A DNA stretch of 6,331 nucleotides from an uncultured archaeon (lineage in GTDB: Archaea; Asgardarchaeota; Jordiarchaeia; Jordiarchaeales; Jordiarchaeaceae). Position 1 is the stretch's first letter; each line of letters opens with the position of its first letter. Below the pieces are notes generated by a model, which was not told the origin of the DNA, searched no databases, and saw only the letters and a list, made by a program, of their open reading frames with translations. Shown in pieces: positions 206-6,331 of the stretch. Position numbers and translations under genes: made by a program. Where the stretch lies: positions 1 to 6,331 of the forward strand of contig CAZECW010000213.1 in the NCBI GenBank assembly GCA_964510585.1, read 5' to 3'.

Positions 206-641
206 ATGGGAGAACTTGAAGAACGTTTGGAGCATATGAGAGAGAAGTTGTGTAAAAGGCTTAGACCAGCTACTGAGAGAAAGAGGAGCGCGAAGTGTGG
301 TAGTTGACTTCACACTTTTCAACGCGGTGCTTCACATGTTGCAAACAAGCATCCAATCCTTTATAGATGCAGGTGCCCGGCTGCTCTCAGAATTGGGTGA
401 AAAACCGCCAAAAACATATGGAGAACTGCCTGAAAAACTGTTGGAAAAAGGAGTGCTGTCAAGTGGTGAAGGAATAATCGCCAGAAAGATAATTGGCTTG
501 AGAAACATTCTTGTCCACACATACCTAGACGTAGATACAAATATTGTTCTAAACATATTGGAGGAAGGTAAATATCACGACATACTCAAAATGGCACTAA
601 AAATTTTAAAATTTGCACACGATAAAAAGATAGACCCATAA
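206..641 (+). pseudogene. hepT: HepT/DUF86-family HEPN ribonuclease toxin, frameshifted near the 5' end (or a sequencing error)
   Basis: ORF 297-641 carries RNILVHTY (nt 501-524), the RX4HXY motif of HepT toxins, and a DUF86-like LHMLQTSIQSFID helix. That frame is open back to 240 (stop tga 237-239). ATG 206 in another frame gives MGELEERLEHMREK and stops at 303-305. Removing one base around 240-257 fuses them into about 144 aa, a typical DUF86 length. Confidence 0.8.
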
Positions 642-1342: not shown

Positions 1343-1954
1343 TTATTTTTTACTAAGGTAATTTTTTGCTTGGTTGAAGTTCACTTCAAGTAATTCTGGT
1401 AGGTTTATTCCGGCTTTTTCAAATTTTTTTGTTGTTTTTCTGAGGGCTTCCTCGGATTCTGAGAAGTATAGGGTGAGTATGGTTTTTTCTCCCACGATTT
1501 TGGTTATGTCTTCCCAAATTTTGGTGTAGCTGAACTCGTCATATATGCTTTCTCCGATTTCTATGTTGAAATGGTTTGATACCAGTTTTTGAATGTAGCG
1601 GGTTAATCCTTCCCTAACCCATCTCTTGTAACGTGTCTTTATCCACGTTAGTGAATGTAGTAGTTCGTGTAGTATTGTGTCGTATTTTTGGATGCTTTTC
1701 TCTTTTATGACAATGATTTTTTCTCCGTGTATGGTTATGGCGTTTGTTATTTCTGCTAGTGTTTCTGCTGTTTGTTGAGAGTATCCCAACTTTTCATAGT
1801 AACTTTGGAAGTAGGGTAGGTCTGCTACTCTAAAATGGTACTTGGAGTGTTCCGAAATTTCGACGCTGACCCCCTTTTCCTGTAGAAAGGATTGTATGTA
1901 GTTAAGGCAGGTTTTTGCCGCCTGGTCGAGTCTACCATCACTCCAGATTTTCAC
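1343..1954 (-). CDS. Zinc metallopeptidase, gluzincin / peptidase MA-like (HExxH...WxxEG), 203 aa
   Basis: HELLH at aa 96-100 follows a beta-strand (IIVIK) and precedes RWVREG with the third-ligand Glu115 (HExxH-x14-E). The GTG start has GGTGGA upstream and overlaps the end of the HTH gene by 17 nt. No signal peptide is apparent. Confidence 0.8.
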   Translation of the reverse strand: MKIWSDGRLDQAAKTCLNYIQSFLQEKGVSVEISEHSKYHFRVADLPYFQSYYEKLGYSQQTAETLAEITNAITIHGEKIIVIKEKSIQKYDTILHELLHSLTWIKTRYKRWVREGLTRYIQKLVSNHFNIEIGESIYDEFSYTKIWEDITKIVGEKTILTLYFSESEEALRKTTKKFEKAGINLPELLEVNFNQAKNYLSKK

Positions 1955-2390
1955 CCAGTTCCACCGCTAACTCTGCTATATCTTTTCCGAATCTTTCCTT
2001 GAGCTGATGGGGGTACCACTTTATTAGGTTTTCCAGCGTTTTCCGAGCGGTTTCCAACTGAGCTGGTTTTTTGATTTCTAGTAGCTTTTCAATTTCACCT
2101 AGTCTTAGCAGTATGTCATGATAAATAAGTTCTTCTAAGAATTGAATCAGTTTCTCCCTCACTCCGGACTCGTTGTTAACACTGAAGCGGATTTCACCAG
2201 CAATGTCCCTCCTTACCACAAGTCCAGCTTCTACAAGCATTTTCAAGTGCTGGTATACAGTTGCTGCGTGGAGCCCAGTAATTTTTGAAAGCTGCCCCGT
2301 AGTTAAGCTTTCTCGGTGTCCAACTAAAGCTCTTAACAATTTTAATCTTCCCTCAGCAGAAAGGCTCTTCTCAACAACAGAAATCTCCAT
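1938..2390 (-). CDS. ArsR-like winged-HTH transcriptional regulator with a C-terminal helical extension, 150 aa
   Basis: RLKLLRAL...LTTGQLSKITGLHAATVYQHLKMLVEAGLVVRR...RFSV matches the ArsR/HTH_20 pattern. GGTG lies 6-7 nt before the ATG and a TATA box is upstream. Confidence 0.88.
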   Translation of the reverse strand: MEISVVEKSLSAEGRLKLLRALVGHRESLTTGQLSKITGLHAATVYQHLKMLVEAGLVVRRDIAGEIRFSVNNESGVREKLIQFLEELIYHDILLRLGEIEKLLEIKKPAQLETARKTLENLIKWYPHQLKERFGKDIAELAVELGENLE

Positions 2391-2407
2391 ATGTTGACAC
2401 CAAAAGA

Positions 2408-2431
2408 ATATATGCTAAAAACATATATAAA
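2408..2431 (-). promoter_or_regulatory. TATA box of the HTH-peptidase operon overlapped by a 7-7-7 inverted repeat
   Basis: TTTATATA lies at 2431-2424 on the minus strand, about 34-41 nt upstream of ATG 2390. The perfect inverted repeat is ATATATG (2408-2414), 7-nt spacer, CATATAT (2422-2428). Confidence 0.55.
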
Positions 2432-2892
2432 CATTCACCAAAACAAAACCTAAAGAACCACCATAAATTTAGATGCTGCAAACATCTCCCTTGTTTAAAA
2501 ACAAGCTAAAAAATTATTGTTCTCTTCTACGTTACATAATTCCCATTTTTTTAAATTTTTTATATACTCTTCTGAATTTTTTGCAATTTTGAATTGCTTT
2601 TTTGAAAAATTTTCAGAATCCAAATGAAATATACTAAAAAAGTAAAATTATGCAACCAGTAGTTCGGTTCTCTTGGCTTCAAGTTTCATTTTTGCGGATC
2701 CTTCTTCCATCGCGAGAGGGTGGAATTCGCAGAGGAGTTGACTTAAAGTTATGACCCAAACAGTAAAACAAAATTATTTTTGATAATTCCAGTGAAGGAA
2801 CAAGCATTTTTTGAGGGTGTTTCTGTTGTGATGGTTTGATTTTGGCATTTGTTTATGGGGGTTTTGGTGTTGCTCGTATGGTAATTTTGTGG

Positions 2893-4410
2893 TTAGTTTT
2901 GTCTTTCGTCTTTTTCGGTTGGGGGTAGTAGTTCTCTTTTTATGTCTTCTTTTGATATTAGCCAGATGAGTTCTTTTTCGTCTTCGTAGACGTAGATTAG
3001 GGGTATCATGTATTTTTCTGCGAGTTTGTAGTAGGCTATGGTTGCGGGCTTGTTTAGGGCTGTGCAGTCCATGACCAAAATGTGATTTCTTATTAGTTCT
3101 TTGAGAACTTGTTCAACCTTCTCTTCAACGGTTTTAACATTTGTTATTTCTTCGTCTCTTAAAAGGTGCCAGTTTATGTTGCTGGGTGTGATATTTTCCC
3201 ATTCGGGAATGGATTTGTATGTTTCAAAAACGGTGACTTTAATTTCATGTTTCTGGTCTTTTTCAGACTGGGAGTTTTCTTTTGGGAAGTTTTCTTTGGC
3301 TAGGAGTTTGAGTGCTGTTTCAGTTTCAGACTCGCTTCTTTGCTCTCTTCTTCCCAAGAGGCCGAGGTAGGCGTAGTCAACATTTGTGGAATCGAAAATG
3401 TAGCATAGGGGGCTTTTATGCGTTAATTCTACGGTGTGTCTTATGTGTTTCCCTTTTTCCTTTCTCGAATCTTTCTTTCTCATTGTATACATTAATCTTT
3501 CGCCGCGTGTAGAGGTTATGATTCCCTTCTCTTCGAAAATGTCTAGGATATGGCTTAGTGTGCTTTTCCCCATTTTTGCTTTTTCCGCAAGATCTCCAAT
3601 TCCGATGGGTTTACCGACGGTGGCTAGCTCTTTTAGGACTCGTCTCCAGTTCTCATTTTTGAAGGCGGTCTGATAAAATTTTATGTGTTTGGCATCTCCT
3701 TCTCGAGAGGTCTCTCCTTTTTTATTTGGTTTTTCGTCGGGTAGTAACTTTTTCTTTAAGTCTTCTTTTGATATTATCCAGTTTAGTTCTTTTTTGTCTT
3801 CGTAAACATAGATTAGGGGAACGCTGTGTTTTGTTGCGAGTTTATAGTAAGCTATGGTTGCGGGCTTTGTGAGGGAAGTGCAATCCATAACCAAAATGTA
3901 GTTTTTAGCGAGGTCTATGAGATGTGGCTCTACCTTTGATTGAATGGTTTCGATTCTTCTTATTTCCCTCTCTCCTATAAGTTTCCACTCAACTGGGATT
4001 GGGATATTCTCCCACTGGGTTTTACACTTTTCTGTGGTTAAAACTATGACCCTCTCAAAATTCAAGTTCTCCTTGGCCAGGAGTTTTAGGGCTGTTTCAG
4101 TTTCAGACTCGCTTCTTCCCTTCCTCTCACCTAGGAGACCGAGGTAGGCATAGGGAATTTTGGTGGAGTTGAAGATGTAGCATAGGGGGGTTTTGCGCTC
4201 CAGCCTAATTTTGTCCCCCTCAATGGAGATAACATTATTCATCCTGAGAATATTTATTTGGTGCCCAAAAGTGTTTTGGGATAATCCCACACTCCCTTTG
4301 AGTGGTAGGGATTGATTTTGTCCGCCTGCTTTTGCTAACTCCTCCAAGATTGCTCTCCTATTTCTTTGCTCCAGAGCAGACCTGTAATCTATAGCCTGCA
4401 CATTCTCCAT
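2893..4410 (-). CDS. Tandem-duplicated [wHTH + CARF-like Rossmann domain]x2 protein; putative nucleotide-sensing transcription regulator, 505 aa
   Basis: There are two homologous halves (aa about 1-224 and 250-496). Each has an N-terminal wHTH (GLSQNTFGHQINILRMNNVI; IGDLAEKAKMGKSTLSHILDIFEEKGII). Each then has a Rossmann-like domain with YLGLLG, a second hydrophobic strand (VIVLTT in unit 1), ILVMDCTxLxKPATIAYYKLA and PLIYVYE, resembling the CARF DxT/SxGxK/R helix motif and final strand. AAGGGG precedes the ATG. The CDS is certain; the CARF call is from motif recognition only. Confidence 0.75.
   Translation of the reverse strand: MENVQAIDYRSALEQRNRRAILEELAKAGGQNQSLPLKGSVGLSQNTFGHQINILRMNNVISIEGDKIRLERKTPLCYIFNSTKIPYAYLGLLGERKGRSESETETALKLLAKENLNFERVIVLTTEKCKTQWENIPIPVEWKLIGEREIRRIETIQSKVEPHLIDLAKNYILVMDCTSLTKPATIAYYKLATKHSVPLIYVYEDKKELNWIISKEDLKKKLLPDEKPNKKGETSREGDAKHIKFYQTAFKNENWRRVLKELATVGKPIGIGDLAEKAKMGKSTLSHILDIFEEKGIITSTRGERLMYTMRKKDSRKEKGKHIRHTVELTHKSPLCYIFDSTNVDYAYLGLLGRREQRSESETETALKLLAKENFPKENSQSEKDQKHEIKVTVFETYKSIPEWENITPSNINWHLLRDEEITNVKTVEEKVEQVLKELIRNHILVMDCTALNKPATIAYYKLAEKYMIPLIYVYEDEKELIWLISKEDIKRELLPPTEKDERQN
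2923..4410 (-). repeat. Intragenic direct duplication (two units offset by 777-816 nt)
   Basis: Identical DNA blocks: 27 nt gctgtttcagtttcagactcgcttctt at 3314-3340 and 4091-4117; 17 nt gctatggttgcgggctt at 3035-3051 and 3851-3867; 17 nt gtcttcttttgatatta at 2944-2960 and 3760-3776. Confidence 0.95.
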
Positions 4411-4440
4411 CCCCTTAAAATAGTTTGATTAAACCTCCAC

Positions 4441-4451
4441 ACCATAAAAAC
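4441..4451 (-). promoter_or_regulatory. Possible TATA-like promoter element of the wHTH-CARF gene
   Basis: The minus strand reads aagTTTTTATGgtg about 30-40 nt upstream of ATG 4410; a non-canonical TATA box. Confidence 0.3.
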
Positions 4452-4669
4452 TTAGGTTGAGAAAGTGAAGGTTGCCTGTAGCCTTTTACTAAAACTATGG
4501 GCATAAGTCTTCTACCCCATCCATAAAAATATTTCAGCAGGCATATATTTGTGTTATGTGAGAAACTTGCGCTTTTTAACCCATTCCGCCCTTTGCAGAG
4601 ATGTAAAAAGTTTTTGGAGTCTTCTTTACCAACATGGGATTGAAATTTTAGTGCTTTTGGTTCATTAGT

Positions 4670-5527
4670 TTAGAGCTGTTTAATTGCATCTTTGAGGTCT
4701 TCTAGTACTTGTTCCAGCGTTTTGTTTTTTAGAGTTTGGAAGCCTCCTACTGTTTTGTGTCCTCCTGAGCTGTAGCCTTTGTTTCTAAGGTGTTGGTAAA
4801 TTTTTGTGAGGTCCAAGTTTCTCTTTGTGGCTATGGTTCCACCCTTCACCCCCTTTCCCTCCATTCCTACGGAGATGACTATGGGATTTTTTTCTTCCAG
4901 GGTGAGCATGGCCTCTTTGGAGGCTCCTCTCTCCCAGCGGTCACCAAAATTGAACGTGAAGTATACTGCTTCCGTTGTTAATTTTTCGCTTCTATCCAGG
5001 AGTTCCTTCGTTTTCTCCTCTATTTTTTGGTACTCTGATGATACCTTTTCCGCCCATTCCCGGAGTTCTTTCCAGTTTCCTTTTCTAACCATTTCTGAAA
5101 CCCGTTGACGGGGGAATCCTTGGGGGTCTATGCGGTAGGCTCTCCATATTATGTTGCCCAGTTTGGAGTTAAGTGTGGCGGTGTCTACTTCCTCCACTGC
5201 AGTTCTCCATTCTTCTGGGAATTCTAGTTTAAAGTGGTCTGCAATGAGTGAGGAGACCGCACGGTAATCTGGCTTGAGAATCCACTCGTTTCCCATTTCA
5301 TCCATGCCTTGTCGAGTCTCGGTCCCGTGATGATCAATTATGAGTGAATTACGCATAGCTTTTACGCGGGTTGGTGTGATTTCTATACAGGCTGCGTTTT
5401 CAATGTTTAAATCCGCAAGTTCAAGTGGGAATTCTAGGGGAACACCGAAAACGCGTGAAAGAAGGCCGGCTCCCACCACTCCGTCCCAGTCTCCATGGGC
5501 TACAATTCTCAATATTTCAGGCTTCAT
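4670..5527 (-). CDS. DHH/DHHA1-family phosphoesterase (NrnA/Pde2-like), about 285 aa
   Basis: Motif I is RIVAHGDWDG, the signature motif is LIIDHHG, a later acidic motif is EEVDT, and the C-terminal DHHA1 motif is SSGGHKTVGGF. The likely start is ATG 5527 (MKPEILRIVAHGD), which puts motif I near the N-terminus and has GAGGG upstream. The ORF track's extension to 5641 is low-complexity. Confidence 0.9.
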   Translation of the reverse strand: MKPEILRIVAHGDWDGVVGAGLLSRVFGVPLEFPLELADLNIENAACIEITPTRVKAMRNSLIIDHHGTETRQGMDEMGNEWILKPDYRAVSSLIADHFKLEFPEEWRTAVEEVDTATLNSKLGNIIWRAYRIDPQGFPRQRVSEMVRKGNWKELREWAEKVSSEYQKIEEKTKELLDRSEKLTTEAVYFTFNFGDRWERGASKEAMLTLEEKNPIVISVGMEGKGVKGGTIATKRNLDLTKIYQHLRNKGYSSGGHKTVGGFQTLKNKTLEQVLEDLKDAIKQL

Positions 5528-5852
5528 ATCTTTGTATCCCTCTTTTTGAAGTTTCTGTTTCATTTCTGGTTGATAGTGGCGATTACCTTTAGCCATAAGC
5601 TTTTGTATCTTTTTGTTGTGGTTGGTGTGTTTTTTGGGCATTGCGCCGAAATTTTTATGTGGAAAGTTTTATTTTTTGCTGTTTTCTGCTTTTGGTTTGT
5701 AAGGGTTTGGAAAGTTTTCTTTTTTTGTGGTTTGTAGTTTCTATCTGGCACAAGTAGTTGTGCTATATTAATTTTGTTGGAATAATGTTCAACACATATT
5801 AAAATATATTCTATTTCTGCGTGGTGTTTTTGGAGTACGCTGAAATTCTGAT

Positions 5853-6121: not shown

Positions 6122-6331
6122 GTGTTTTGGAGTAAAATTTTGGACTTTTTTAGGAGGCCTAGTGAGGAGGTTGCACGTGAGATTCTGAGGAATATTGGTG
6201 TTTTTGAGTTTGATGAGGGCTATGGGATTTTGAAGACTTGTTTGATTAATTTGGTTGGGAGAAAATCGAGGGAGCCTTCTTTTATTGAATTCTTTGGGAA
6301 GCTCTCCAATGAACTCTTCAAGAAGATTAGA
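6122..6331 (+). CDS. Hypothetical protein, 5' part only (runs off the window end)
   Basis: GTG 6122 has a strong RBS GAGGAGGTG at 6105-6113 and 70 open codons to the edge: MFWSKILDFFRRPSEEVAREILRNIGVFEFDEGYGILKTCLINLVGRKSREPSFIEFFGKLSNELFKKIR. No family was recognised. Confidence 0.7.
   Translation, partial: MFWSKILDFFRRPSEEVAREILRNIGVFEFDEGYGILKTCLINLVGRKSREPSFIEFFGKLSNELFKKIR

Follow-up and report, generated by a model that had tools for sequence, protein, structure and literature searches.

We analyzed a stretch of DNA from an uncultured Asgard archaeon (hereafter, the window), which is the entire 6,331-bp contig C213 of a 3.78-Mb genome assembled in 217 contigs, and which carries on its minus strand four co-oriented genes that an initial annotation had read as one nucleotide-signalling module: a DHH phosphoesterase as signal eraser, a CARF protein fused to DNA-binding domains as reader, a helix-turn-helix (HTH) repressor, and a zinc protease. 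The four genes are present at the coordinates given there, with the reported gaps of 502 nt (HTH to CARF) and 259 nt (CARF to DHH), and the closest protein matches of the window's genes belong to Candidatus Freyarchaeota/Jordarchaeia (Asgard archaea). Comparison with related genomes indicates, however, that the genes are probably three independent units standing side by side: a type III CRISPR-associated CARF transcription factor (unit A, 2893–4410), an extra paralogue of a DHH/DHHA1 enzyme gene (unit B, 4670–5527), and a repressor/protease pair (unit C, 1343–2390).

The single-module interpretation fails a gene-neighbourhood comparison. The initial annotation had held that the module would be refuted if homologues of its genes did not co-occur, and on that ground it is refuted, because the units are found apart in relatives. 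Across five genomes of the same genus (G117–G121, one of them closed), the three units sit on separate contigs or are over 400 kb apart; in the closed genome, G117, the DHH gene maps to 0.47 Mb, the CARF gene has one copy at 2.69 Mb and another, with stops, at 0.05 Mb, and no gene for the HExxH protein, the predicted protease, was found. High-copy repeats occupy two of the window's gaps, one of ~190 nt at 1143–1340 (roughly 10 genome copies) directly downstream of the HExxH gene and one of ~127 nt at 2531–2656 (roughly 20 copies) within the 502-nt gap between the repressor/protease pair and the CARF gene. A multi-layer nucleotide-alarm switch made of eraser, reader, repressor, and protease would fit the contiguity and shared orientation of the four genes in the window, and analogy offers a plausible role for each of them, but in all of the more distant relatives the CARF gene, the DHH gene, and the pair occur separately. 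A contig with an identical gene order, L076, is 95% identical to the window in DNA and is not an independent observation, and of its genes the HExxH match is broken over two frames and the rest are intact. We therefore regard a four-gene switch as very improbable.

Unit A encodes a 505-aa protein that, by its predicted structure, is a true CARF protein built as a tandem of two units, each a winged helix-turn-helix (wHTH) followed by a CARF domain. The two halves are 45% identical to each other (E 1e-68). Unit 1 (residues 1–225, positions 3736–4410, minus strand; hidden Markov model envelope) comprises an ArsR-like wHTH at residues 1–76 and a CARF domain at residues 84–219, and unit 2 (residues 237–497, positions 2920–3702, minus strand) repeats this arrangement with every family motif retained. 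An exhaustive search returned relatives in 80 cluster representatives, mostly single units of 220–250 aa. Pfam gave no support for the CARF call, and the fold came from structure prediction and fold search. An AlphaFold2 model of unit 1, based on an alignment (A1) of 38 sequences of the wHTH-CARF family, had a predicted local distance difference test (pLDDT) score of 95.9, and its residues 84–219 matched the solved CARF domains of VC1899, Can2, Cdn1, Card1, Csm6, Cad1, Cam1, SSO1393, Can1, Sso2081, and Csa3 with Z scores of 10.8–13.9; for those other than SSO1393, Can1, and Sso2081, the root-mean-square deviations were 2.2–3.6 over 107–135 residues. The Foldseek probability of the CARF match was 1.0. 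In the fold search, residues 1–76 matched ArsR/SmtB-type winged helices. The proposed reader, a CARF domain joined to DNA-binding domains and present in duplicate, is thus borne out by the fold matches and by the identity between the halves.

CARF ligand sites are marked by a glycine-rich loop after strand 1 and by a D-x-[ST]-x-x-x-[KR] motif after strand 4. In alignment A1, G94 (within Y-x-G-L-L-G), D176, and T178 are invariant or nearly so and, together with a majority-consensus K-P, fit this pattern, and the ligand-site motif residues are present in both halves of the 505-aa protein. The family profile also matched the CARF domain of Can2 (E 9e-5, residues 88–133), with a conserved D-x-T-x-x-x-K block. 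The closest named family was CARF_m5, the label of a model (CARF_m5--CARF, PDLC01987) in the PADLOC library, which has no curated cut-offs: the model matched the protein in two stretches (E 5.8e-19; each half E ~1e-10), and each half spans approximately positions 10–195 of the model's 195, covering it end to end with the same order of N-terminal wHTH and C-terminal CARF. Because the model scores far better on another Asgard subgroup, made up of weaker homologues (E 8e-45), the window protein is best placed in a sister subgroup of CARF_m5, from which it differs in being a tandem fusion in one chain and in belonging to a subgroup tied to type III cas genes.

Tandem fusion has occurred repeatedly in this family. 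In a tree of half-units of the P0001 family, the fusions fall into two clades (P0037/P0039/P0050 and P0001/P0006/P0007), and inside each clade first halves cluster with first halves, from which we conclude that the fusion has at least two separate origins and was retained after each. The single-unit protein P0008 is placed beside the window lineage's second halves. Since CARF sites need two domains, a fusion that arises more than once and is kept fits a working intramolecular pseudo-dimer, and by analogy the two CARF domains of the 505-aa protein may pair within one chain.

The genomic surroundings of the family connect the 505-aa protein to type III CRISPR systems. Searching 400 Asgard genomes with profile A1 recovered the wHTH-CARF family in 54, and 16 loci were taken for calling of open reading frames (ORFs) and Pfam scanning. 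The seven closest loci, which come from six genomes and represent three families, contained 82 neighbouring ORFs, among them 14 RAMPs, 6 Cas10 palm2, 3 Cmr3, 2 Cmr2_N, 2 Csm6-HEPN, 2 Cas_APE2256, 2 Csx3, and 2 Cas6. Six of the seven have a Cas10 ORF no more than 8 kb from the wHTH-CARF gene, and in the seventh, Csm6-like and Cas_APE2256 genes immediately adjoin it. The subgroup of the 505-aa protein is therefore tightly linked to type III cas genes. More distant homologues show a looser CRISPR tie, and the loci of the weaker subgroup include an actin gene.

The window's own genome also encodes a potential source of the signal. The initial annotation was correct that the window holds no signal synthase, and the search of the genome for cas10 that it had suggested located Cas10 on another contig, C108. 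Judged from alignment to a same-genus locus (L055), contigs C210 and C108 abut and constitute one type III locus (L074, L073) with RAMPs, a Cas10 that has an HD domain and a GGDD motif, and three CARF proteins (CARF1, Csm6-like; CARF2, Csx1; and CARF5). Because a GGDD Cas10 is encoded on C108, the genome has a signal synthase of its own, one that is cyclase-competent by its sequence motifs. C210 carries a 228-aa ORF at the site occupied by the wHTH-CARF gene in G120, a genome of the same genus; we considered this ORF as a family member and rejected it (hhalign probability 0.3; no PADLOC match). In G117, a second wHTH-CARF copy (L052; C1:48550–49191) adjoins a type III operon and is likely a pseudogene, with one TGA and one TAG stop.

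Two observations would suit a different function for the 505-aa protein, as an orphan regulator responding to another nucleotide or metabolite: no cas genes occur in the window, which is the whole of the contig that carries the CARF gene, and CARF_m5 scores best on the less CRISPR-rich subgroup whose loci include the actin gene. A related possibility is that the protein is chiefly a wHTH ring nuclease like Crn1/SSO1393, given that SSO1393 and Sso2081 are among its fold matches (Z 10.8–11.6). Both are made quite unlikely by the finding that all seven of the closest loci are type III loci, by the near relatives P0007 (a double protein 45% identical to that of the window) and P0008, which flank Csm6-like genes on a 156-kb contig, and by the Cas10 of the genome itself.

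We propose that unit A is a CARF_m5-like, type III CRISPR-associated transcription factor in tandem-fused form, in which the two CARF domains would pair to create a single pocket for cyclic oligoadenylate (cOA), presumably supplied by the Cas10 on C108; binding of the ligand might re-orient the two N-terminal winged helices and thereby alter transcription of target genes. A close known counterpart is Csa3, a CARF-wHTH transcription factor of Sulfolobales that binds cyclic tetra-adenylate (cA4; PDB 2wte and 6wxq). The two proteins share a CARF sensor joined to a winged helix, an association with CRISPR, an expected cOA-controlled effect on transcription, and the fold (Z 10.8). In the window protein, however, the order is reversed, with the wHTH first; the PADLOC Csa3 models match chiefly its HTH part; it scores 16.4 bits against the Csa3 equivalog TIGR01884, whose cut-off is 60.2; and Csa3 is a homodimer of single units rather than a single-chain double unit. 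On account of the reversed order and the score below the cut-off, we consider the 505-aa protein to be Csa3-like in its working but not a member of Csa3. A precedent for pairing within one chain is Can1, the CRISPR ancillary nuclease 1 of Thermus thermophilus, which has two CARF domains and a cA4 site within the monomer (PMC8284326). Can1 (PDB 6sce; CARF fold match Z 11.4) likewise carries two CARF domains per chain, but its output is a PD-D/ExK nuclease in place of the two wHTH domains of the window protein, and the two have no sequence kinship beyond the CARF fold.

Unit B, upstream of the CARF gene (4670–5641, minus strand; probable start at 5527), belongs to a different context. The initial annotation's assignment of a DHH enzyme holds: the protein exceeds the Pfam cut-off for DHHA1 (26.7 bits against 25.9), and in alignment A5 the residues D13, D15, D65, H66, H67, G255, and G256, which belong to the DxD, D, DHH, and GGGH catalytic motifs, are invariant. 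All core homologues align to the protein only from M39 onward; this residue corresponds to position 5527, the end coordinate in the initial annotation. The preceding stretch, 5528–5641, possibly encodes a basic 38-aa N-terminal extension that is not found in the core orthologues and is kept, with an in-frame 3-nt indel, on contig L075. Among PDB structures, the DHH family profile best matched the archaeal pAp phosphatase 8a8k, over its full length (E 1e-9), with PggH next (E 1e-6). The window protein resembles both this NrnA-type enzyme of Methanothermococcus thermolithotrophicus and PggH of Vibrio cholerae (7d62) in its profile match and intact motifs, and differs from them in its low identity, in being encoded by an extra paralogue, and in the possible extension. 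PADLOC has no model for, and gave no match to, either the DHH or the HExxH protein.

Homologues approximately 70% identical to the window DHH occur in every genome of the genus. The core orthologues of other Freyarchaeota, Lokiarchaeia, and Baldrarchaeia are surrounded by def, trp-operon, MgtE, and tRNA-methylase genes, and in those lineages neither CARF nor cas genes adjoin them. The window's genome has two copies that are 69% identical to each other, one of them on contig C144 in the core synteny conserved with closed genome G117 and the other in the window, without synteny on either side. The DHH tree places the C144 copy with P0022 and puts the window copy in another subclade, alongside P0010, P0011, and P0012. 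We considered mis-binning of C213 as an explanation of the second copy and rejected it: the contig has the ~100-copy repeat of this genome at 100% identity, and its HExxH gene stands at about the same distance from the KIH08 relative as does the C144 DHH, so the contig is probably not mis-binned. Since it is a second copy, lacks synteny, and lies on a contig that probably belongs to this genome, we interpret the window gene as an extra, island paralogue. The C144 copy (L072; C144:7320–8176) is broken into two frames in an A-rich run, by a genuine frameshift or through an error of assembly; in the former case, the window gene may be the only intact copy. In comparison with L075, the middle of the window DHH gene (4850–5350) is 70–79% identical in nucleotides (67% in protein), while its flanks and both intergenic regions are 85–100% identical, a mosaic that suggests either rapid divergence or recombination with an unsampled allele.

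We therefore examined how far the placement of a DHH gene beside a CARF gene extends. Adjacency in the same orientation recurs on L076 and L075 alone, which are 95% and 89% identical to the window in DNA, and because of this identity we count the three contigs as one observation. A profile of the window-type DHH found no match at ~50 other wHTH-CARF loci. The double wHTH-CARF orthologue P0006, which is 60% identical, has a RING-finger gene upstream in place of DHH, and no DHH gene lies within 10 kb of P0007. That gene (L023:2274–3116, on contig C24 of G121) encodes a 280-aa RING protein (zf-RING_2, E 1.5e-7) directly upstream of the double wHTH-CARF gene.

Several points weigh against separating units A and B. 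The adjacency, its orientation, and a highly conserved 259-nt spacer are all kept on L076 and L075: the spacer (4411–4669, minus strand), aligned with L076:915–1171 and L075:3558–3836, has 88% mean column identity across the three contigs, is almost invariant over the 170 nt closest to the CARF gene, and is more conserved than the neighbouring DHH coding sequence. An extra, non-syntenic DHH paralogue would look like a recruited accessory enzyme, and such recruitment has parallels in NrN, a CRISPR-linked DHH enzyme that removes SAM-AMP (PMC10600005), and, according to a citation in PMC8284326, in MAD, a DHH-DHHA1 nuclease that is membrane-associated and removes cA4. The window, moreover, is a complete 6.3-kb contig, so that its neighbourhood is seen only to the contig ends. 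One further candidate for a link was rejected. A 17-nt motif with only two sites in the 3.8-Mb genome, at 5884 upstream of the DHH gene and at 4516 upstream of the CARF gene, is not exceptional when all position pairs are considered, as chance would yield about two such 17/19 pairs in an AT-rich window of 6.3 kb, and 19 comparable repeat families were listed there. The spacer, in which two TTTTTATGG-type boxes and, around 4495–4525, an imperfect palindrome are also present, is a candidate promoter or operator.

The island DHH might, on this evidence, clear cOA or its linear products (A2>p, pApA-like) and so reset the CARF factor, with the HTH/peptidase pair unrelated. The conserved adjacency and spacer, the presence of a core copy elsewhere in the genome, the far greater divergence of the DHH middle than of its flanks, and the NrN and MAD precedents would all fit such a reader and eraser, but we consider it unlikely, in view of the single observation to which the three contigs reduce, the absence of DHH profile matches at the other wHTH-CARF loci, the lack of a DHH gene upstream of P0006 and within 10 kb of P0007, the gene's own 259-nt spacer, and the identity of its nearest solved relative as a pAp phosphatase. 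Because DHH removers of type III signals exist, recent recruitment of the island DHH beside the CARF gene retains a low probability. It is improbable, too, that the DHH enzyme and the single-chain factor constitute a newly evolved reader/eraser pair of one Freyarchaeota lineage, in which a duplicated nanoRNase/pAp phosphatase is at an early stage of recruitment. NrN and MAD belong to the same superfamily as the window DHH, which adjoins a type III-linked sensor gene; yet the window lacks the CorA gene, and any cas gene, that would mark an NrN-type linkage, the DHH adjacency is not conserved beyond near-identical contigs, and no hydrophobic membrane segment of the kind expected for MAD is visible in the DHH sequence. 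Our preferred interpretation of unit B remains that of an extra paralogue of a lineage-wide NrnA/pAp-phosphatase-like DHH/DHHA1 enzyme gene, which most likely acts on pAp or short oligoribonucleotides, may stand in for the frame-split core copy on C144, and lies next to unit A most likely by accident, or at most through a recent, lineage-restricted link.

Unit C is a self-contained pair, independent of units A and B. It consists of a gene for a 150-aa ArsR/SmtB-type wHTH regulator with a C-terminal helical tail (1938–2390, minus strand; Pfam HTH_5, E 3.7e-11) and, overlapping it by 17 nt, a gene for a 203-aa HExxH protein (1343–1954, minus strand) predicted to be an MA-clan, gluzincin-like metallopeptidase. 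Pfam gave no support for the zinc-protease call, and the fold was established by structure prediction and fold search. In alignment A4, H96, E97, H100, and E115 are invariant. An AlphaFold2 model of the HExxH protein (pLDDT 77) retrieved, in the first 39 rows of the fold search, almost exclusively HExxH zinc peptidases (M1, M4, and others) over 115–174 residues, with modest Z scores of 9.1 at the top and ~4.6–8.3 across the remainder, and it also matched "Peptidase MA-like" clusters of the AlphaFold database (AFDB). As to kinship with M78 peptidases, the Atlas feature search, in which the clusters for the HExxH protein were all unnamed, gave one weak lead (0.91; 18% of the cluster's members carry M78), and the AFDB search gave an IrrE-like row (E 0.72).

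All 13 clusters of the HExxH family come from Freyarchaeota. The pair and its overlap are conserved at loci L008–L013 and L076, with an HTH partner of 150–152 aa on at least six contigs, where the other neighbours vary (an AOR operon, radical SAM genes, NurA-HerA-Mre11-Rad50) and include neither DHH nor CARF. A model of the HTH-HExxH complex scored 0.79, compared with 0.01 for the best control; scores at this mark were obtained for 58 of 80 solved complexes and for 2 of 110 mismatched pairs, a calibration that is rough here, where our own alignments were used. Three runs shared at least 93% of contacts, with a partner pLDDT of at least 83, and placed the C-terminal tail of the regulator (residues 133–150) on H96 and E115 of the peptidase. 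The model supports, without proving, binding between the two proteins, and the position of the tail at the predicted active site is compatible with repressor cleavage as well as with a repressor tail that inhibits the peptidase. The HTH/zinc-protease pair of the initial annotation is thus real, by its Pfam HTH, zincin fold, and conserved overlap, with binding predicted.

We propose that unit C is a Freyarchaeota-specific, translationally coupled pair of ArsR-type repressor and MA-clan zinc peptidase that may, with the repressor tail at the peptidase active site, operate as a repressor/protease switch like ImmR/ImmA or CapH/CapP. In those systems, and in DdrO/IrrE (Peptidase_M78), an HTH gene is likewise coupled to a HExxH peptidase gene, and the predicted complex would put the tail of the window regulator at the catalytic site. 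The window pair differs from all three in that its regulator is ArsR-type, not Xre-type, and that its peptidase has no match to Pfam Peptidase_M78. The peptidase also departs from the ImmA/IrrE type in a fold closest to the catalytic domains of M1 and M4 and in a family confined to Freyarchaeota.

The remaining features of the window indicate that this stretch of the contig is a repeat-riddled variable region. The left end (1–141) is a high-copy repeat element, the end of an insertion sequence (IS) or of a miniature inverted-repeat transposable element (MITE), for which a blastn search of the window segment against its own genome found ~100 copies with 86–100% identity, a great many of them at the ends of contigs; the fragmentation of the assembly is probably due mainly to this element. 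The IS of the initial annotation corresponds to this 141-nt element. The ~190-nt and ~127-nt repeats lie in the gaps flanking the HTH/peptidase pair and have a MITE-like look. The neighbouring HEPN gene that had been noted is also present, outside the four genes, and encodes a HepT-type HEPN RNase toxin (297–641, plus strand; Pfam HepT-like, E 9.5e-22; NCBIfam HepT_toxin, 73 bits against a cut-off of 60); no match to an MNT-like partner was found in the window. At the right end (6122–6331, plus strand), the contig end cuts into a gene divergent from DHH, whose counterpart on L075 (1137–2096) encodes 319 aa, has no match in Pfam, and yields only weak winged-helix leads in the Atlas (at most 0.86). 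Rfam had no match in the window, and a scan for sigma-70 promoters and terminators there was at chance level, with models unsuited to archaea.

A four-gene module, if true, would be a new kind of regulatory system, but the evidence speaks for chance juxtaposition. Were units A and B a reader and eraser, they would provide a case of cOA turnover by a soluble DHH enzyme in archaea, seen early in its recruitment. What is new in the window is, first, a lineage-specific ArsR/MA-peptidase pair in Freyarchaeota, whose confidently predicted complex makes it a candidate for an archaeal equivalent of the bacterial switches that cleave a repressor and, second, a single-chain double version of the CRISPR-linked CARF transcription factor, itself a known kind. 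Asgard archaea thus have wHTH-first CARF transcription factors that are tied to type III CRISPR loci and have been fused at least twice. The fused double sensor is naturally asymmetric, leaving both the halves of its ligand site and its DNA-reading heads free to diverge, and would be useful for studying how cOA binding is transmitted to DNA binding.

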